Virus record (IMG/VR): IMGVR_UViG_3300031521_000025
Coordinates: 1-64,000 of that record
Source of the DNA: a virus
Reading direction: 5' to 3' (one strand)
DNA length: 64,000 nucleotides
Shown: positions 5,837 to 29,897 of the stretch, one piece after another
How the letters are laid out: every line of letters begins with the position of its first letter
How positions within the stretch are numbered: position 1 is the first letter of the stretch
Position numbers and translations under genes: made by a program
Notes under the pieces: model-generated
The model's input: only the letters and a program-made list of their open reading frames with translations
The model's database searches: none
Told to the model about the DNA's origin: nothing

Positions 5837-6514
5837 ATGAATTTAGCGTTATTAACTTCTATAGGAAAGTTTGTTTTAAATCCCAAAGTTTACAAAACAA
5901 TAGGGATAATAATAATTGTTTTAATGTTTTTGTATCTTTTTATTGATAGAAACAATCAAGAAGCTAATGCTATTAGACAAACAGCAAATGTCGCTGCTTT
6001 AAATAAACAATCAAAAGAATACAAAGATAAGTTAGATCAAATAGTAATTGAAAACGGCGTTTTAATTCTTTCAAAAAAAGAAATTAAAGAATCTAGCTCA
6101 AAAGAGATAGAATTTATGAAAAAACAATTAGAGGTAAAAGATATTAAAATTAGAAATTTAATATCAATGAATACTGGTTCTATAAAAACCCATAGTCAAG
6201 GAAGTGTTGTTTTACGTGATACTATTACTCAACATGATACTGTTGTAAGTAAAATTGATACTTTAATGTTTGGTGTATGGACTAATCCTTGGGATAGTAT
6301 TAATTTTAAATTAAAGATTCCTGAGTTCAAGCTTGATTTTGATTTATATACTAATGATACTATTTTTTGCGCAGTTTATAGATATAAAGAAAAACCTTGG
6401 AAAATTAAAAATATTCTCCCTTGGAATTTTAGAGAATGGGTTTATGGAGGAAGTGGTAATTTAACAAGACCTAATTCTAAAGTAAATTTAAAGTTTATTA
6501 ATAAAAAAGACTAA
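5837..6514 (+). CDS. Membrane-anchored coiled-coil protein (possible i-spanin-like)
   Basis: N-terminal TM TIGIIIIVLMFLYLFI, then coiled coil and DT-rich beta region; function is inference. Confidence 0.45.
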   Translation: MNLALLTSIGKFVLNPKVYKTIGIIIIVLMFLYLFIDRNNQEANAIRQTANVAALNKQSKEYKDKLDQIVIENGVLILSKKEIKESSSKEIEFMKKQLEVKDIKIRNLISMNTGSIKTHSQGSVVLRDTITQHDTVVSKIDTLMFGVWTNPWDSINFKLKIPEFKLDFDLYTNDTIFCAVYRYKEKPWKIKNILPWNFREWVYGGSGNLTRPNSKVNLKFINKKD

Positions 6515-21639: not shown

Positions 21640-23730
21640 ATGTCACAACCAACAGTAAATTATCTTAGTAGAGATTTCCTTAATATAAAAAACGATTTAA
21701 TAAATTGGGCTAAAACGTATCATTCTGATAAATTAGTTTTTTTTAATGATGCAAACACTGATATTATGTATCTTGAAATGGTTGCATATGTTGGAGACAT
21801 GTTATCTTATTATACAGATAAAACATTTAACGAAAATTTCAGAACAACTGCTCAAGCTTTAGAATCTTTAGTAAGAATTTCTAATAATTTAGGTTTTTAC
21901 AACACTGGAGCTATGAGTTCTATCGTAGAGGTAGAAGTAAGTGTTAAAATTCCTTTCACTTCATCTACTATAGGCGCAATCTCACCAGATTATAAATTTT
22001 GTCCTATTTTAAGTACAGGAACTAAATTAAAATCTGATTCAGGTGTAAGTTTTGAAATTACAGAGGCTGTTAACTTTACATTAAGTCAAAATCGAACTGA
22101 AACTCCAAATTATGATGGAAACGGAGCTGTTATAGATTACACAATAACAAAAAAAGTAACAGCAAAAGCAGGAGAAACAAGAATTCAAAGTTTTTATGTT
22201 AGCGAAGCTTTATATAAACCATTTTTGTCGTTTGTTTTAAATGATTTAGATATTACAGAAATTGTAGGGTTAGTAGTAGTACAAGGAAAACAAACAGTTG
22301 CTCCTACAGATTATAGTTTTGTTAATTATAATGTTGCTTATTATCAAGTAAGAGAATTAACTCAATCTAAAGCTTTTTTTGAAACAAATATAGATAATAC
22401 ATCTAGCACTGCTTTAATTAAACAAGGAGCTTATCAACCAATCCCTAGAAGATTTATAGTTAGAAGGGATGCTAAAAACACTACAACTATTACCTTTGGA
22501 AATCAATATAACGAAGATGTTACAGAAAAACTTTATTCTCCAGTAACAGCAGATGAATATTTTAATAATGTTCATGATGATGTTGATTTAGGAACATTAC
22601 CTCCTGTAAATAGCACGATTTTTGTAAAATATAGAATAAAAGGAGGGTCTTCTACAAATGTTGTAAGTGGAACAATTAACTCAATTACAGCAAAACAATG
22701 GGAAGCGGTAGATTTATCTTTACCGATGCCTCTTATAAATAAAATTAGAAGTTCTTTAAAAGTAACAAACCCTTTGGATGCATCAGGAGGTAGAGATACT
22801 CCTACATTAGAAGAATTAAGAGAAATATCTGGAAAAACTTTTGCAGCTCAAGATAGAGGAGTTACTTCTGAAGATATTAAAACTATGGTTAAATTAATGC
22901 CTCCTAAATTTGGCAATCCTTTTAGAGTTTCTTATGATGTTATAGGTCCAAGAGTCGCAAATTCTAAAACAATAGAAATTGATATATTAGCATTAACAGA
23001 TAAGTTAATTAACTCAACTATACAAAGCGAAAGAATATTGATTTCAAGCCAAATTAAAGATTATTTTAAAAATTACAATACTAATGCTGTAAAAAACAAT
23101 ATGTTAGTTGCTGATCCTAATTTATGGTTAGGAGAAAAAGGTTTATTATATATTATTGGACAAACAGAAGATGGCCAATTAAATACAATACAAAAAAATG
23201 CTTCAGGAGCTTGGGTATCCCCTAATCAAATTTTAAAAGAAAATATTAAAAACTTTTTAATAGATAAAAGAGTAATAGGAGATTGGATTGATATTTTAGA
23301 TGGTAAAATTTATAATTTACAAGTAGAATTTACAATTTTTGCAGATTCAAACAATAAACAACAAACATTAATTGATTGTTTACAAAAACTTGTAGCTTAT
23401 TTTGATGTAAATAATTGGCAAATGGGACAACCGATTTACATTTCAAATGTTTCAACAATATTACAAGAAATTAGTGGAGTAATTAGTGTAGCTGATTTAA
23501 AGTTTTATAATATAATAGGAACAGGAGTTGATTCTGTTGATCCTGTATCTGGTAGAAAATATCAACCGCTTGAAATAGGGTTATATCCTGAAATTAACCC
23601 AACATATCTTAATAGCTATGGGAGTAAATTTGAAGTTTTAGCAAATAATAATATAATTAAAGGTTATCCTAATAGTATTTTTGAAGTAAAATACCCAGAA
23701 TCAGACATAATTGGAAAACTTTATAGTTAA
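21640..23730 (+). CDS. Baseplate wedge protein (T4 gp6/baseplate J-like)
   Basis: NYLSRDF..IK..L, AYVGDMLSYY, ASGGRD, AQDRGVT.ED. Confidence 0.88.
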   Translation: MSQPTVNYLSRDFLNIKNDLINWAKTYHSDKLVFFNDANTDIMYLEMVAYVGDMLSYYTDKTFNENFRTTAQALESLVRISNNLGFYNTGAMSSIVEVEVSVKIPFTSSTIGAISPDYKFCPILSTGTKLKSDSGVSFEITEAVNFTLSQNRTETPNYDGNGAVIDYTITKKVTAKAGETRIQSFYVSEALYKPFLSFVLNDLDITEIVGLVVVQGKQTVAPTDYSFVNYNVAYYQVRELTQSKAFFETNIDNTSSTALIKQGAYQPIPRRFIVRRDAKNTTTITFGNQYNEDVTEKLYSPVTADEYFNNVHDDVDLGTLPPVNSTIFVKYRIKGGSSTNVVSGTINSITAKQWEAVDLSLPMPLINKIRSSLKVTNPLDASGGRDTPTLEELREISGKTFAAQDRGVTSEDIKTMVKLMPPKFGNPFRVSYDVIGPRVANSKTIEIDILALTDKLINSTIQSERILISSQIKDYFKNYNTNAVKNNMLVADPNLWLGEKGLLYIIGQTEDGQLNTIQKNASGAWVSPNQILKENIKNFLIDKRVIGDWIDILDGKIYNLQVEFTIFADSNNKQQTLIDCLQKLVAYFDVNNWQMGQPIYISNVSTILQEISGVISVADLKFYNIIGTGVDSVDPVSGRKYQPLEIGLYPEINPTYLNSYGSKFEVLANNNIIKGYPNSIFEVKYPESDIIGKLYS

Positions 23731-23807
23731 TAAAAAAAATAATTAAAAATCCGTGGATTGTATTAAATCTAGTTATATCTTTAGGGTATCAAATTAATTA
23801 AGAATAA

Positions 23808-23838
23808 TTGACAAAAAAAATAAAATAATTATATTTAA
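23808..23838 (+). promoter_or_regulatory. Putative promoter of the leader/tRNA transcript
   Basis: TTGACA (23808) followed by TATATT (23830) overlapping the recurrent ATATTTAA motif (23831). Confidence 0.5.
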
Positions 23839-23850
23839 AATAAAAACAAA

Positions 23851-23916
23851 ATGAAAATTATTAACAACATATTAGAGGTTTTGGAACAGTTACAAGAACA
23901 GTTACTGATGACCTAG
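23851..23916 (+). CDS. Attenuator leader peptide MKIINNILEVLEQLQEQLLMT
   Basis: 21 codons; 11 of codons 8-19 are Leu/Glu/Gln; A-rich start context; not in the ORF track. Confidence 0.8.
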   Translation: MKIINNILEVLEQLQEQLLMT

Positions 23917-23986
23917 TGTATGTAGTTATAATAACAATATAACAAACAAAAAACCCTAGGTTAGTAAAATAGCTTAGGGTTTTTTT
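23902..23986 (+). promoter_or_regulatory. Transcription attenuator (antiterminator/terminator) upstream of the tRNA cluster
   Basis: Terminator CCCTAGGTTA-GTAAAA-TAGCTTAGGG-T7 (23954-23986); TTACT/GACCTAG (23902-23916) can pair with CTAGGTT/AGTAA (23956-23967). Confidence 0.8.
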
Positions 23987-24009
23987 GTGATCTTTGAAAT
24001 ATAATAAAT

Positions 24010-24094
24010 GGTTCAGTGTTGTAACTGGAAAGCCAAGACGGTTTTAAACGCCGTTGTCCTTTGAGGCGTGTGGGTTCGAGTCCCACCTGAACTA
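24010..24094 (+). tRNA. tRNA-Leu(TAA)
   Basis: Acceptor GGTTCAG/CTGAACT, anticodon arm ACGGT-TTTAAAC-GCCGT, long variable arm, GTTCGAG T-loop, A73; no encoded CCA. Confidence 0.9.
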
Positions 24095-24109
24095 CTTTTA
24101 TAAATTTAT

Positions 24110-24182
24110 GTCCGGTTCATATAGTTGGTTAGTATTCATGGTTTTCATCCATGCCACACGAGTTCGAATCTCGTACCGGGTA
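24110..24182 (+). tRNA. tRNA-Glu(TTC)
   Basis: Acceptor GTCCGGT/ACCGGGT, anticodon arm CATGG-TTTTCAT-CCATG, TTCGAAT T-loop. Confidence 0.88.
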
Positions 24183-24191
24183 CAAATAAAT

Positions 24192-24266
24192 GTCAGGTTA
24201 GTGTAATTGGCTAACACGTCTGGTTTTCATCCAGGAGATTACGGGTTCGATCCCCCGTACTTGATA
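24192..24266 (+). tRNA. tRNA-Glu(TTC), second copy
   Basis: Acceptor GTCAGGT/ACTTGAT, D stem GTGT/ACAC, arm TCTGG-TTTTCAT-CCAGG; one extra C in the T arm. Confidence 0.8.
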
Positions 24267-24275
24267 CAGTTAAAT

Positions 24276-24360
24276 GTCATAGTAGGCTAGCGGTCTAGGC
24301 AACAGACCTTCAATCTGTCTTCGAGAAATCGATTCGTGGGTTCGAATCCCATCTATGATA
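24276..24360 (+). tRNA. Atypical long-variable-arm tRNA with TTC anticodon (C33); identity uncertain
   Basis: Acceptor GTCATAG/CTATGAT, arm ACAGA-CCTTCAA-TCTGT, variable arm TCGA-GAAA-TCGA, GTGGG-TTCGAAT-CCCAT, A73. Confidence 0.75.
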
Positions 24361-24383
24361 CTAAAATAATTAAATAGTTATAT

Positions 24384-24456
24384 TGACTTATGATGTAATG
24401 GATAAGCATACAAAATTTTGAATTTTGTTGTCAAGGTTCGAATCCTTGTGAGTCAA
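24384..24456 (+). tRNA. tRNA-Gln(TTG)
   Basis: U1-A72 acceptor TGACTTA/TGAGTCA, arm CAAAA-TTTTGAA-TTTTG, TTCGAAT. Confidence 0.88.
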
Positions 24457-24567
24457 CAAATAAAAACAAAATTAATTACAGATTACTAAAGTGTTAAACG
24501 TTTTTTTAAGAAAAAGGTTAACTTTACAACATTTAGTTATATTTAATAATATATTAAATGCAACTAA

Positions 24568-25407
24568 ATGAAAACTTGTTTAAAATGCAACAAAGAACAT
24601 AATGGATCTTTTGGGTCTGGAAACTATTGCTGCAAATCTTGTGCAAATAGTCATGTTAGAACTGATGAAAGCAAATTATTAACGTCAAAGTCAGTTAAGA
24701 ACAGTGAAAAGGTTATTCAAGCGGTAAAAGAAAGAAGCATCAAAAGAGAAGCTTTGAAAAAAAATAAAAAAACTATAGAAGAAAAATACCCTGATCGATC
24801 AAAAGTTTTTACTCAAAATAAAAAAGAAATTTTATTAAAAACACTAGAGTGGATTAATAATAAAAAGTCTTTAACTTATATATGTAATAAGTTAGAATGT
24901 AGTAGAAATACTTTAAAAAAATTTTTCAAAATAAATAAAATTATTTATAATGGAAACCAAGGAAACAAAGGAGTGTATGTAACAAACCCTTTGGTGGATA
25001 ACTTTAAAGGATCTATTGGTACAGTAAAACAAAGAATTAAAGATGAAAATTTATTAGATTATAGTAAATGTGGAGAGTGTGGAATAAAAGAATGGAATAA
25101 AAAAGAAATAGGTTTAGAACTACACCACAAAAACGGAAACAGAAAAGACAATAGATTAGAAAATTTAATTTACTTATGTCCTAATTGTCATTCACAAACC
25201 GATACTCATAGGGCTAAAAATAAAAAATATTTAAAAAAAATAACTTCAGAAGAACTTTTAGAAATATTAAAAAAAAGCAAAAGTATAAATGAAGCTTTAA
25301 AAGAAGCGAATATGAGTACATCTCAAACTAACTATGCAAGAGCTAAAAGACTTGTAAAAAAGTTTGAGCTATTTAAAGAAGATAACAACCCTTATAGTTT
25401 TAATTAA
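24568..25407 (+). CDS. HNH homing endonuclease
   Basis: CGECG...LELHHKNGNRKDNRLENLIYLCPNCHSQT; N-terminal Zn ribbon. Confidence 0.9.
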   Translation: MKTCLKCNKEHNGSFGSGNYCCKSCANSHVRTDESKLLTSKSVKNSEKVIQAVKERSIKREALKKNKKTIEEKYPDRSKVFTQNKKEILLKTLEWINNKKSLTYICNKLECSRNTLKKFFKINKIIYNGNQGNKGVYVTNPLVDNFKGSIGTVKQRIKDENLLDYSKCGECGIKEWNKKEIGLELHHKNGNRKDNRLENLIYLCPNCHSQTDTHRAKNKKYLKKITSEELLEILKKSKSINEALKEANMSTSQTNYARAKRLVKKFELFKEDNNPYSFN

Positions 25408-25412
25408 ACCTA

Positions 25413-26537
25413 TTAAATTAAAACAACCTTTTTCCCAATTAATTTCTCTAATTTTTCTATTAAGTATTTTTCAGCTTTTTTTTCAGCTACAGGTTCATCT
25501 ATTATCCCTGCTTTATATAATTTAGTATAATACTTAGGGTTATCATTAATATGATCTGTAGCTATTTTTTTTCGTAACTCATAAGAATTACCATGTTCTC
25601 TTTCTACCTCTACTCCTACTATAAATTCTGGGTTAGCTAACTTATAAGTTTGATAAAATTCTTTTTTTGCAATTCTATAAACTTCTTTTGTATCAGGGTT
25701 TATACATAAAAAATCACCTTTTTTAGCAACCATATTCTCACCCCAAGGAGCTAAAAATTTAAAAGTTTGCTTTAAATTGAATTTTTCTAAAAAAGCTTTA
25801 GAAATTTTTACAGCAATACATTCTCCAGTAGGTTCATATACATTTATGTCTGAAGTTGGAATATATCTAGTTTTAAATGTTTTATCATTTATCAAATATT
25901 GTTCTTTTGCTTCTGTTTCTATATTTGTAATAAGATAATCACCATCTTTCGCAACGTTTTCTGTTTCTTTTCCATCCGAAGTCATGGTTACTACTTTTTG
26001 ACCTTTTTTTGCAGGTACAGCTAATACTTTTGCAAACTTTTTAAATATTGTGCCTTCTTTTTCAATATACGAAGCAATATTTAACAATTCCATTCGTTCA
26101 AGTAAAATTTTCTTTTTATTGATACTTTCTGTCATAATCCAATTATTTTTATCTGATAAAGTTTCACTTATTTTAAATCCGAATTTGTTAATCATTATAT
26201 CTTTCATTTTTGGGTTAACAACCTCAATTTTCATCAAGTAATCATCTCCATAAATAGTTTTCAACTCTTCATATTCTTCAATAGCTTTAGTTATAAGAAT
26301 TTTACCTATACCTTCTCCATCGTAATCTTTTGAAACTGCAACATCCCAGGAAAAATCGTCAACATTATCAGATATAAATAAAACACCTACAATATCTTCA
26401 TCATCCATGATATAATAAAGTAATTCTTTACCATAATGAATTTTCAAATTTCTTTCTTTAGTTATTTCTAATGCTTTTTTATATATTTTTTTTTCAGCAT
26501 CTTTTGAAACATTGTATTTTATTAATTTATATGACAT
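25413..26537 (-). CDS. Multidomain protein: GNAT-like + PGDYG-like + DUF5661-like, C-terminal shared motif
   Basis: VAVSKDYDGEGIG (GNAT motif A), GDYL/APWG/GDFL, GVEVEREH..IATDH....YYTKL; ends YLIEKLEKLIGKKVVLI. Confidence 0.6.
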   Translation of the reverse strand: MSYKLIKYNVSKDAEKKIYKKALEITKERNLKIHYGKELLYYIMDDEDIVGVLFISDNVDDFSWDVAVSKDYDGEGIGKILITKAIEEYEELKTIYGDDYLMKIEVVNPKMKDIMINKFGFKISETLSDKNNWIMTESINKKKILLERMELLNIASYIEKEGTIFKKFAKVLAVPAKKGQKVVTMTSDGKETENVAKDGDYLITNIETEAKEQYLINDKTFKTRYIPTSDINVYEPTGECIAVKISKAFLEKFNLKQTFKFLAPWGENMVAKKGDFLCINPDTKEVYRIAKKEFYQTYKLANPEFIVGVEVEREHGNSYELRKKIATDHINDNPKYYTKLYKAGIIDEPVAEKKAEKYLIEKLEKLIGKKVVLI

Positions 26538-26938: not shown

Positions 26939-27550
26939 ATGTTTAATTCACCAAGTTATAACTTTACAATACAAAACATCAGTGATAACAAATCTGATGT
27001 TTTAATTTTATGGACTTCAAGTAGTTTACTTGCAGGTGATGAAAGTTTTGTGAAAATTCATAACGAAGCAGGCTCTACTGTAAGAAAAGAAGTCTATAAT
27101 ATTAAATATGACTATAATACAAATAATTTTAAATTTGGAGATAATATTATTACGAATGCAGGTTTTTTAAAAACAGATAAGCTTGTTCACAGTGTTTTGC
27201 CAAATTATAAAATCATTTCTGATAAAAAACAAAGACTAGCTTTATTAAAAACAACATTGTATAATATAAACGAAACATTAAAATATTTTGAAAAAACTAA
27301 TTACAAGGTACTCAATATTACTTTTCTTCCTATATCAACAAAAATTTACGGAGAGGTTGATAAAGAAACAATTAATGTGTTTTTATCTTGCATTATAGAT
27401 TTTTTTAAAGATTTTCATTCTATTACTATAATATTTGATGATGAAAAAGATAGACAACAATATTTTAACGTATTTAAAAGAAAAAAAATTTATTTTTTAC
27501 AAAAAATTATAATATATGCAAAGTATTTCGGAATTAGTATTAAAATATAA
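26939..27550 (+). CDS. Macro domain protein
   Basis: NIS...DV, IHNEAG, ITNAGFL..K..HSV.P, PISTKIYG; catalytic loop diverged. Confidence 0.7.
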   Translation: MFNSPSYNFTIQNISDNKSDVLILWTSSSLLAGDESFVKIHNEAGSTVRKEVYNIKYDYNTNNFKFGDNIITNAGFLKTDKLVHSVLPNYKIISDKKQRLALLKTTLYNINETLKYFEKTNYKVLNITFLPISTKIYGEVDKETINVFLSCIIDFFKDFHSITIIFDDEKDRQQYFNVFKRKKIYFLQKIIIYAKYFGISIKI

Positions 27551-29897
27551 AGGACCTCACCCTTATTTAAAGATTTTAAGAAAAAAAATCGAAGACGGTT
27601 TCGAATTAGACGAAATGCAAATAAATATGGCAAGCAAAATGTTAGTATCGGTTGCTGCTATAAAAAAAGATAAAACCTTACTTCCTTTAGAGGAAATAAA
27701 AGATTTCAATGTAGATTGGAATAAATATTCAAAAAGACCGCCTTATAATCATCAAAAAATCGCAACTAATTGGCTTTTAAATAAAAATAAGGCAATTTTA
27801 GCAGATGATATGGGGCTTGGGAAGCGAATTGCAAATGATGTTCCTGTTTTAACTCCAGATGGTTGGGTGCTTCACGGATCTTTAAAAGTAGGTGATTATG
27901 TAATTGGATCAGATGGAAAAAAAACTAAAGTATTAGCAACTTATCCAAGTAATTCAGATAATTATTATACTATAACTTTTACTGATGGAACAAAAGTTGA
28001 ATCTTGCGAAAATCATTTATGGGCGGTTACAACATTAAATCGAAAAAAAAACAATTCTGGATATATAAATTTAACCATAAAACAAATGTTAGATAGAAAT
28101 CTAACATTAGAAAATGGAGAATGTAGCTATTATAAACTTAATGGAAATTGCAAATGGTATATTCCTATTGTAAAACCAGTAGAGTTTACTCCAAAACCTA
28201 TTGAACTTGATCCTTATTTAGTTGGAATGATATCTGATATCAAACAATTTATTGCAAAAAAATATAAATATAATTCTATTGATGTTAGACTTAGCTTACT
28301 ACAAGGAATATTAGATACTGAAAAAAGCACTTGTTTAGAAAATGGGTTAATTAAATATTACAGTAAATCAAAAGAATTTTTAAGTGATGTTAAAGAATTA
28401 GTACAATCTTTAGGTGGAACAGCTAAAGAAGAGCAATGTTTTTTGTTAATTAACTTACCTGAATGTATTGTTCCTTTTAATATACAAAGTAAAATTGAAG
28501 ATTTTTCTAAAAAAATCAGACATCAACCTTCAAGAGGTATAAAAAAGATTGAGTTTTCAAGAGAAACAAAAGGGCAATGCATAAAAGTAGATGCAGAAGA
28601 TTCTTTATATGTTATAGATAATTATGTTGTGACTCACAATACCCAGTCAATAGTAATGTCTATTCTTGAAAAGGATGAAAAAACCATTATCATTTGCCCA
28701 AAAACATTAAGGTTAAATTGGAAAATTGAACTTTCATGCTTTACTGATGAAAAGAAAATATCTATAATTGATAACAAATGGGTTGATAATAAAATTGTTA
28801 TTATTAATTATGATAAAATTCATAAATATGTAAACGAGATTGTAAAAGCCAAATTCAAATTAGTTGTTTCAGACGAATCTCATTATGTTAAAAACGGTAC
28901 AAAATCAAGAAGAGGTAAAGTTTTCAACAAAATAGCGAATAAATCAAAAGTTACTTGGTTAATTACAGGAACTCCTATGGCAAACAAACCTATGGATTTT
29001 TTTAATTTATTGAAAATTTGCAAACATGAATTAGGAAAAAATAAAGGTGATTTTGGAAGAAGATATTGTGATGGAAAACAAACCGATTTTGGTTGGGATT
29101 ATAGTGGAGCTTCAAACTTAAAAGATTTACATTATAGAACGCAAGATGTAATGCTTAGAAGATTAACAAACGAAGTTATCGAACTTCCAGATAAGCAAAG
29201 AATTCCATATTATTTAGAGTTTACATCATCTCAATCAAAAGCTTATTTAAAAGCAGTAGAAGATAAGTTTCAAGATATTTATAATAATGTAAGCAACCCT
29301 GATTCAGAACATTATCAAAAGAATTTATTTTCAGGAGAAGGGTTTATTGAACTTTCTGCAAAAAGAATGTTTTGTGCTTTAGAAAAACTTAAAGATGGGT
29401 CTTTAATAGAAATATTAGACAACTTCATTAGTCAAGGACATAAAATTGTAATATTCACAAACTTTACTGCAGTTATAAACTTTATAAAAGAAACATATGG
29501 TAAAAAATGTGTTATTTTAGATGGTAGTGTTAAAGAAAAACAAAGACAACAAAATATTGAAAAATTTCAAACTGATTCTTCTATAGATATTTGTGCTTGC
29601 AACTATATAGTAGGAGCTGAAGGAACTACTTTAACTTCGGCAACAATTATGATTATGAATGATTTGCCTTTTTCTCCTCACTTGGTACTACAAGCAGAAA
29701 AGCGTATTCATAGAATTGGTCAAAAAAATAAAGTACAAATATATTTTCCAATATATAAAAACACAAAAGACGAAGAAATATTTGAAGCTATAAAGCAAAA
29801 AATGGAATATATAAATACAGCGATTGATAACATAGATGGTGTAGATTTCAAATCTGAAGGGGATTTGATTAAATCATTAATAAAATCTAAGAAATGA
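27516..29897 (+). CDS. SNF2-family helicase with intein in Walker A
   Basis: ILADDMGLGK/[intein]/T, DESH, TGTP, QAEKRIHRIGQ. Confidence 0.92.
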   Translation: MQSISELVLKYKGPHPYLKILRKKIEDGFELDEMQINMASKMLVSVAAIKKDKTLLPLEEIKDFNVDWNKYSKRPPYNHQKIATNWLLNKNKAILADDMGLGKRIANDVPVLTPDGWVLHGSLKVGDYVIGSDGKKTKVLATYPSNSDNYYTITFTDGTKVESCENHLWAVTTLNRKKNNSGYINLTIKQMLDRNLTLENGECSYYKLNGNCKWYIPIVKPVEFTPKPIELDPYLVGMISDIKQFIAKKYKYNSIDVRLSLLQGILDTEKSTCLENGLIKYYSKSKEFLSDVKELVQSLGGTAKEEQCFLLINLPECIVPFNIQSKIEDFSKKIRHQPSRGIKKIEFSRETKGQCIKVDAEDSLYVIDNYVVTHNTQSIVMSILEKDEKTIIICPKTLRLNWKIELSCFTDEKKISIIDNKWVDNKIVIINYDKIHKYVNEIVKAKFKLVVSDESHYVKNGTKSRRGKVFNKIANKSKVTWLITGTPMANKPMDFFNLLKICKHELGKNKGDFGRRYCDGKQTDFGWDYSGASNLKDLHYRTQDVMLRRLTNEVIELPDKQRIPYYLEFTSSQSKAYLKAVEDKFQDIYNNVSNPDSEHYQKNLFSGEGFIELSAKRMFCALEKLKDGSLIEILDNFISQGHKIVIFTNFTAVINFIKETYGKKCVILDGSVKEKQRQQNIEKFQTDSSIDICACNYIVGAEGTTLTSATIMIMNDLPFSPHLVLQAEKRIHRIGQKNKVQIYFPIYKNTKDEEIFEAIKQKMEYINTAIDNIDGVDFKSEGDLIKSLIKSKK
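27825..28640 (+). mobile_element. Class 3 intein (272 aa), Arg1, degenerate endonuclease
   Basis: RIANDVPVLTPDGW...ENHLW...GQCIKVD...VVTHN/T (W-C-T signature). Confidence 0.85.

Follow-up and report, generated by a model that had tools for sequence, protein, structure and literature searches.

Leader-peptide attenuators are known from trpL, hisL, leuL and pheL, from the multivalent thrL and ilvL/ivbL, and from pheM of the pheST synthetase operon. Here we analyse a locus with the same architecture in a window of 64,000 nucleotides (nt) of viral DNA, the first 64 kilobases (kb) of the 111-kb IMG/VR virus record IMGVR_UViG_3300031521_000025 (27% G+C, estimated to be ∼41% complete), which encodes T4-like baseplate, terminase and helicase genes. 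In this phage a ribosome-mediated (leader-peptide) transcription attenuator probably gates the only transfer RNA (tRNA) cluster, a reading to which we give a probability of about 0.65. Every result reported here was obtained by computation on sequence.

The window shares with the enterobacterial attenuators a promoter, a short open reading frame (ORF) enriched in cognate codons, three hairpins (1:2, 2:3 and 3:4) that exclude one another and an intrinsic terminator placed before the putatively regulated genes. As in the thr and ilv leaders, one leader would sense several amino acids, and rare codons are among the putative sensor codons, as is CUA in leuL. The enterobacterial systems regulate biosynthetic or synthetase genes, whereas the putative target in the window is a set of tRNA genes, so that the output would replace the sensed molecule. 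The window also differs in that the element belongs to a phage, and in its host type, which lacks Shine-Dalgarno sequences and has very short 5' leaders. T-box riboswitches resemble the window in having a terminator/antiterminator switch that reports on a specific tRNA pool. However, they bind the uncharged tRNA directly, without translation, and act on synthetase and amino-acid genes in Firmicutes, while the leader in the window would need to be translated. No T-box-like element was found in the region by Rfam search.

To our knowledge, which tRNA genes phages carry has been discussed for fifty years, while the control of their expression is barely known. At least in part, published work treats phage tRNAs as codon compensation or as decoys or replacements against tRNA-cleaving defences (PMC10264068, PMC11555353). 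These papers share with the window the theme that phage-borne tRNAs sustain translation during infection; as far as their themes go, they concern which tRNAs are carried and why, in contrast to a sensing leader that would control transcription. Full-text searches, with incomplete journal coverage, found nothing on attenuation or leader peptides before phage tRNA genes. The mechanism is classical, unlike the tRNA-gene target, the 'checklist' leader and the phage setting. If the reading is right, attenuation would have found a new use, in which the decoding speed for several amino acids is read out, the matching tRNAs are transcribed and the product is the sensed molecule itself. Phages would then monitor the translation capacity of their host in real time, and the signature for finding such sensors would be a short ORF that spells out, in its composition, the tRNAs encoded downstream of a terminator.

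A leader-peptide attenuator appears to be the simplest reading of the combined evidence, because a promoter, a gene-like start, a cognate codon run, a terminator and exclusive folds are all present with no second promoter recognised, and because a cultured phage of unrelated lineage has units of the same design. The baseplate wedge gene ends at 23730 and is followed, in this order, by the promoter motif, the 21-codon ORF, the terminator, the five tRNA genes and the HNH gene. The elements of the putative attenuator and its cluster are as follows (window coordinates):

23808-23838, plus strand: promoter, with TTG, 19 nt and TTATATTTAA, the recurrent promoter-like motif of the phage
23851-23916, plus strand: leader ORF, 21 codons followed by TAG, peptide MKIINNILEVLEQLQEQLLMT, with an A-rich start context lacking a Shine-Dalgarno sequence
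23862-23928, plus strand: hairpin 1:2, which spans the greater part of the ORF (strand 1, 23876-23891; strand 2, 23897-23914)
23872-23907, plus strand: putative regulatory codon run, codons 8-19; of these 12 codons, 11 specify Leu, Glu or Gln and 10 can be read by the tRNAs of the cluster
23884-23905, plus strand: 12-nt tandem duplication, GAACAGTTAC at 23884 and 23896, giving EQLQ/EQLL
23901-23920, plus strand: region 2, the putative antiterminator strand, comprising the ORF end with its stop codon (partner, 23956-23967)
23948-23988, plus strand: intrinsic terminator (regions 3 and 4), with a stem of 16 base pairs (bp), a 6-nt loop, seven U and an upstream A-tract, -20.3 kcal/mol
24010-24095, plus strand: tRNA-Leu (UAA)
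24110-24183, plus strand: tRNA-Glu (UUC)
24192-24267, plus strand: tRNA-Glu (UUC)
24276-24361, plus strand: tRNA with a long variable arm and an ambiguous anticodon, Leu-CAA according to ARAGORN, UUC with C33 in the Rfam alignment
24384-24457, plus strand: tRNA-Gln (UUG)

The original prediction, made from the sequence alone, had drawn attention to an unannotated 21-codon ORF in which 11 of codons 8-19 specify Leu, Glu or Gln, and this was confirmed at 23851-23916. The run reads TTA GAG GTT TTG GAA CAG TTA CAA GAA CAG TTA CTG. Genome-wide, 19% of the codons in long ORFs specify one of these three amino acids and 17% are among the six cluster-readable codons, with TTA, GAA and CAA making up 15.7% of phage codons. 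The leader also contains codons that are rare in the phage, namely CAG (twice; 0.16%), CTG (0.06%) and GAG and TTG (∼0.8% each). Among ∼100,000 stop-free 12-codon segments in the six frames of the 111-kb genome, at least 10 of 12 cluster-readable codons are reached at two loci only, one of them the leader. The other high-scoring segment, at 107254 of the record, was rejected as a second leader since it lies out of frame within a fibre gene. The duplicated GAACAGTTAC has no other copy in the genome and was for this reason also rejected as a recurrent DNA-binding site.

The predicted count of ten codons readable by the anticodons UAA, UUC (three times) and UUG stood as well, while the third UUC did not stand unambiguously, the fourth tRNA having either UUC or CAA; the count is the same whichever anticodon this tRNA has. 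In the Rfam alignment the fourth tRNA has a long variable arm of the Leu/Ser type, A73, a perfect 5-bp anticodon stem and the loop CCUUCAA, and the Leu-CAA call of ARAGORN arises from a shifted stem. Over 84-97 nt the gene shares ∼70% identity with part of the genomes of phiEa21-4-type Erwinia and Salmonella phages, a stretch labelled tRNA-Glu in some records. At least four of the five cluster tRNAs combine U34 with split NNA/NNG boxes (Leu-UUR, Glu, Gln), and the fourth gene does so too if its anticodon is UUC. Leu-UUR, Glu and Gln make up the tRNA set that needs the xm5(s2)U34 modification, with Lys-UUU as the usual fourth member; Lys-UUU is not among the cluster tRNAs. U34 split-box tRNAs are also targets of wobble-specific nucleases, and the set found here is consistent with codon compensation by an AT-rich phage and also with the targets of such nucleases.

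A-rich leaders without Shine-Dalgarno sequences typify the long ORFs of the phage (n = 98). The motif (T)TATATTTAA recurs as a promoter-like element 14-45 nt upstream of the ATG in at least 34 long ORFs (examples in the window at 773, 2372, 26922, 30439 and 61805), and several copies lie directly downstream of terminators. No conserved -35-like element was found beside the recurrent motif sites in the whole record. The Bacteroidota -7 element is TAnnTTTG, and because (T)TATATTTAA resembles it, Bacteroidota is the likely host type. At the leader, the promoter scan gave TTGACA-16-TATATT (11 of 12 positions), and the ATG lies 20 nt downstream of the motif start, with the same spacing and A-rich context as in the real genes of the phage. 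The proposal also presupposed that no independent promoter lies in 23987-24009, between the terminator and tRNA-Leu, and neither the promoter scan nor the motif search recognised a promoter-like site or a phage motif there, although a TATAAT hexamer was noted at 23999-24004. The stretch that follows the terminator, 23982-24005, repeats the promoter region imperfectly and in inverse orientation (75% over 24 nt). Its minus strand reads ATTATATTTCAA, which has a single mismatch to the promoter motif and is directed into the bidirectional terminator.

The only other tRNA of the record, tRNA-Met (CAU) at 91830, belongs to a unit outside the window (91780-91950 of the record) where the motif GTATTTAA lies 12 nt upstream of the gene and a terminator directly downstream of it. 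A leader ahead of tRNA-Met was considered and rejected, the gene having none and the promoter motif adjoining it. The phage is therefore able to set a promoter beside a tRNA gene; at the cluster, an ORF and a terminator are interposed instead.

Both an intrinsic terminator between the ORF and the tRNAs and a complementarity between the ORF end, with its stop codon, and the 5' arm and loop of this terminator had been predicted, and both were found. The terminator stem (23948-23985) is followed by seven T, and 23 nt separate the terminator from the first tRNA gene. UUACU..GACCUAG (23902-23916) pairs with CUAGGUUAGUAA (23956-23967) in a duplex of -12.9 kcal/mol. Duplexes at least as strong arose in 1.4% of the dinucleotide shuffles and in 3% of the segments taken from elsewhere in the genome (p 0.012-0.03). 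Within the whole upstream region, region 2 is the best complement to the terminator 5' arm and loop. Taken as a fold, the 2:3 pairing has -13.7 kcal/mol (z = -2.25), and the 1:2 hairpin has -17.1 kcal/mol (z = -2.68), equalled by 1 of 200 shuffles.

The 1:2, 2:3 and 3:4 pairings are mutually exclusive in silico, and the free RNA folds into the ORF hairpin followed by the terminator. The effect of a ribosome was simulated by moving a 30-nt footprint codon by codon and folding the RNA as it is made, before the terminator 3' arm emerges. The 2:3 helix was present in the minimum-energy fold with the A site on codons 6-15 and absent with codons 16-22. Folding with and without a blocked region thus agreed with the prediction that a stalled ribosome would free the antiterminator strand, the helix forming only with the ribosome on codons 6-15. 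Of the claimed trp/his/leu-type attenuation, the sequence-level elements that were tested held, while sensing by codons 16-19, which overlap region 2, did not. Because a ribosome on codons 16-19 covers the antiterminator strand, a sensor role would be limited to codons 8 to ∼15, that is, to the first ∼seven Leu/Glu/Gln codons.

Strong terminators are few in the genome. Those on the plus strand near 724, 2343, 30377 and 68840 precede a promoter motif by ≤10-15 nt, and those at 23954 and 79530 have no promoter motif close behind them. The leader terminator is an exception in that it lies downstream of a promoter and a mini-ORF and ahead of tRNAs. None of the Rfam leader families (His_leader, Leu_leader, Trp_leader, Thr_leader) matched at the gathering threshold; the top match was His_leader with 23.6 bits against a cut-off of 49 (E = 0.22), mostly over the terminator.

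We infer translation of the ORF, its coupling to RNA polymerase and the regulatory outcome from this arrangement. Transcription would start a few bases downstream of TTATATTTAA, and the 21-codon leader would be translated immediately. With fast decoding of Leu-UUA/UUG, Glu-GAA/GAG and Gln-CAA/CAG, the ribosome would reach the TAG and cover region 2, the terminator hairpin would form and transcription would end 23 nt before tRNA-Leu. In an untranslated leader, region 2 would be held in the 1:2 hairpin, again giving termination. A ribosome stalled on codons 8 to ∼15 would instead cover region 1 and leave region 2 free to pair with the terminator 5' arm; this 2:3 pairing would block the terminator, and RNA polymerase would continue into the five tRNA genes. 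The outcome would be a negative feedback that fits the supply of three decoding capacities to the translation need of the phage.

The stall could be triggered by the phage's own demand for TTA, GAA and CAA decoding, by amino-acid limitation or by host tRNA-cleaving defences. Feedback on phage codon demand fits the evidence equally well as the anticodon-nuclease or starvation trigger named in the original prediction. It is also conceivable, if rather unlikely in our view, that the leader is an on-demand counter-defence sensor, where a host anticodon nuclease or some other response that depletes tRNAs would remove the U34 tRNAs for Leu-UUR, Glu and Gln, ribosomes would stall on the leader, polymerase would pass the terminator and the phage would replace exactly those tRNAs. 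Were this true, 'checklist' leaders might represent a general surveillance of tRNA pools in Bacteroidota phages.

The original prediction had also called for a survey of tRNA clusters in related phages for an upstream leader/anticodon match. Such a match was found in Cellulophaga phage phi4:1 (KC821632.1) and its near-twin phi17:2 (NC_021798.1), where promoter, short ORF, terminator and tRNA block form a unit that occurs three times within the tRNA array; it was not found in the closest relative of the window's phage, which lacks the cassette. The phi4:1 leader ORFs, two unannotated and one corresponding to gp075, are located at L224 8562-8630, 9486-9605 and 11268-11366. In unit 1, the TATGTTTG promoter is followed by the ORF MKIQRLHLQELEQPIISGGTGV, a terminator and the tRNAs Pro, Glu, Gln, His, Leu-UAG, Leu-UAA and Arg-ACG. 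These seven tRNAs together read all of codons 4-14 of the leader, and every one of them is represented at least once. The unit 2 leader, in the gp075 frame, lists K, T, G, I, V, D, A and R, and its block consists of Ala, Lys, Ile, Gly, Met, Asp, Thr, Val, Arg and Met. The annotated TTG start of gp075 falls inside the repeated promoter, and a GTG at ∼9522 is probably the more likely start. Unit 3 has the leader MKTNYCTYNNSNWSFSY... and the block Tyr, Ser, Asn, Trp and Phe. When the first 16 residues of the leaders were compared with the amino acids of the three blocks, the matches fell on a clean diagonal, each leader scoring highest with its own block:

Unit 1 leader: block 1, 11; block 2, 5; block 3, 1
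Unit 2 leader: block 1, 2; block 2, 14; block 3, 0
Unit 3 leader: block 1, 0; block 2, 3; block 3, 13

Each Cellulophaga unit has a strong terminator a few bases ahead of its first tRNA, and in all three the best complement to the terminator 5' arm is the 3' part of the leader ORF (p = 0.054, 0.098 and 0.024 for units 1-3, compared with 0.012 for the window). A 34-nt promoter stretch is identical before units 1 and 2. The ORFs of phi4:1 and phi17:2 differ by one synonymous CAG-to-CAA change in the unit 1 leader; outside the ORFs, the units differ by a 1-nt indel within a T-run that precedes the unit 1 promoter and by one substitution ahead of the unit 2 promoter. Judged by the baseplate protein, phi4:1 belongs to a different lineage from the window's phage, the baseplate search not having reached phi4:1. 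A search with the phi4:1 helicase for further loci returned only phi4:1 itself.

The Cellulophaga units thus resemble the window in part order, a leader that starts with MK and lists the amino acids of its block, a Bacteroidota-type promoter, an ORF 3' part complementary to the terminator 5' arm and a terminator just before the first tRNA. They differ in their larger blocks of 5-10 tRNAs each and in the position of the matching codons, which lie at the leader start and are followed by a non-matching tail with region 2, whereas the run in the window reaches into region 2. Because phi4:1 and phi17:2 grow on the cultivable Cellulophaga baltica, the idea is open to direct bench testing.

For comparison with other phages, 398 short ORFs (ATG start, 10-45 codons) located ≤320 nt upstream of 331 tRNA groups in ∼90 other-phage loci were scored for residues whose tRNA is in the group behind, using the best 12-codon binomial. 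The leader ranks first, with 1.2e-7 compared with 4.3e-4 for the best of the 398 control ORFs. A further 62 groups, from 28 flavobacterial-type contigs sharing a tRNA-Glu/Gln motif, gave one comparable match, which is phage phi4:1. The design was not found in Prevotella phage Lak-A1, Flavobacterium phage immuto or the crAss-like cr130_1 and DAC17, in three T4-like IMG/VR records with large tRNA arrays, or among 80 random IMG/VR tRNA clusters.

A different ORF was seen in six flavobacterial-type IMG/VR contigs, where a conserved ORF of 46-48 amino acids (aa; M..NQ.SNNGNTQLN..R..FN.KV.K.S.LG..KKV.W...RRNR.I) ends 7 nt upstream of a tRNA (L236 10132-10272, L240 10423-10563, L243 5752-5895, L253- 6306-6449, L254 747-890 and L245- 1426-1572). 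It is followed by a lone tRNA-Gln in five contigs and by tRNA-Ala and then tRNA-Gln in L245. This ORF was rejected as an attenuator, being a small basic protein tightly linked to a tRNA.

Several observations weigh against an attenuator in the window. A single 12-nt duplication supplies 4 of the 11 matching codons, and these 11 are therefore not all independent. A ribosome stalled on codons 16-19 overlaps region 2 and would favour termination rather than read-through, and for a ribosome at the stop codon the folds also include a weak pairing between region 1 and the terminator arm. Because the stability of the terminator far exceeds that of the antiterminator, a switch would have to be kinetic. 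The TATAAT hexamer at 23999-24004 is a candidate for an unrecognised promoter. The design is rare among the surveyed phage tRNA groups, no look-alike of the leader was found in IMG/VR or INPHARED, and the leader, the tRNAs and the HNH gene are all missing from the closest relative found, L082, which comes from a JGI metagenome and has 66% baseplate identity. A promoter, two hairpins and a terminator are also the anatomy of a small RNA. The locus might then be an independent mini-gene or small RNA, encoding an amphipathic Leu/Glu/Gln helix or forming a ∼140-nt structured RNA, with a terminator that also ends the upstream structural operon; the codon match would be coincidental and the tRNAs would come from leaky read-through or an unrecognised promoter such as the TATAAT hexamer. 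Leu, Glu and Gln are indeed typical of helical peptides, and the genome terminator scan found no terminator for the baseplate operon other than 23948-23988. However, this explanation, which we consider unlikely, does not account for the exact amino-acid match between ORF and cluster, the complementarity between region 2 and the terminator arm or the three block-matched units of phi4:1, and no Rfam match was above threshold.

The codon match and the gene-like signals favour translation, which would equally be expected of a translated leader that acts otherwise, through ribosome stalling that alters processing or stability of the tRNA precursor or blocks Rho, or through a peptide working in trans. 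The weakness of the antiterminator relative to the terminator and the partial overlap of the codon run with region 2 speak for such a route. Yet none of these routes requires the unusual 2:3 complementarity, found in four of four units from two phages, or the strong intrinsic terminator directly before the first tRNA, again in four of four, both of which hairpin competition needs, and we hold such routes to be decidedly improbable. Chance alone would mean a fortuitous short ORF of common codons in an AT-rich spacer near a terminator. Very many segments were scanned, the duplication inflates the count and one out-of-frame segment scores equally, all of which would help such an explanation; it would nevertheless have to accommodate the coincidence of the codon run, the promoter spacing, the position of the terminator and two unusual folds, 1:2 and 2:3 (p ∼0.005-0.03 for each), together with the independent recurrence in phi4:1, and seems very improbable indeed. 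A leader-peptide attenuator remains our preferred reading.

In L082, the baseplate gene runs directly into minus-strand genes, and synteny with the window resumes at 26127. Because L082 has no cassette and synteny resumes at this point, the 1.7-kb stretch with the leader, the tRNAs and the HNH gene is an insertion or deletion in a variable spot. This spot lies between the conserved baseplate gene and conserved minus-strand genes, at 23731-26126 in the window and at 8071-8561 in L082. In the window it holds the leader, the tRNAs, the HNH endonuclease and an extended 374-aa protein, and in L082 one unrelated 142-aa gene. The last element of the cassette is:

24568-25407, plus strand: HNH endonuclease gene, preceded by a separate promoter motif at 24537-24546

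The HNH gene may be the mover of the cassette. A search for homologous loci through this HNH neighbour gave a single unrelated locus, and blastn of the leader region against INPHARED gave no match. Searching IMG/VR via the baseplate neighbour returned only relatives with 25-28% identity, none with a leader, and IMG/VR pattern searches with the back-translated leader peptide and with the anticodon arm of the odd tRNA gave zero matches. No homologous locus was found in GTDB genomes, and none of the five relatives in JGI metagenomes has tRNAs beside the baseplate gene. Finally, the helicase gene of the window (27516-29897) contains an insertion of ∼270 codons (27825-28640) that is missing from its L082 homologue and fits an intein.

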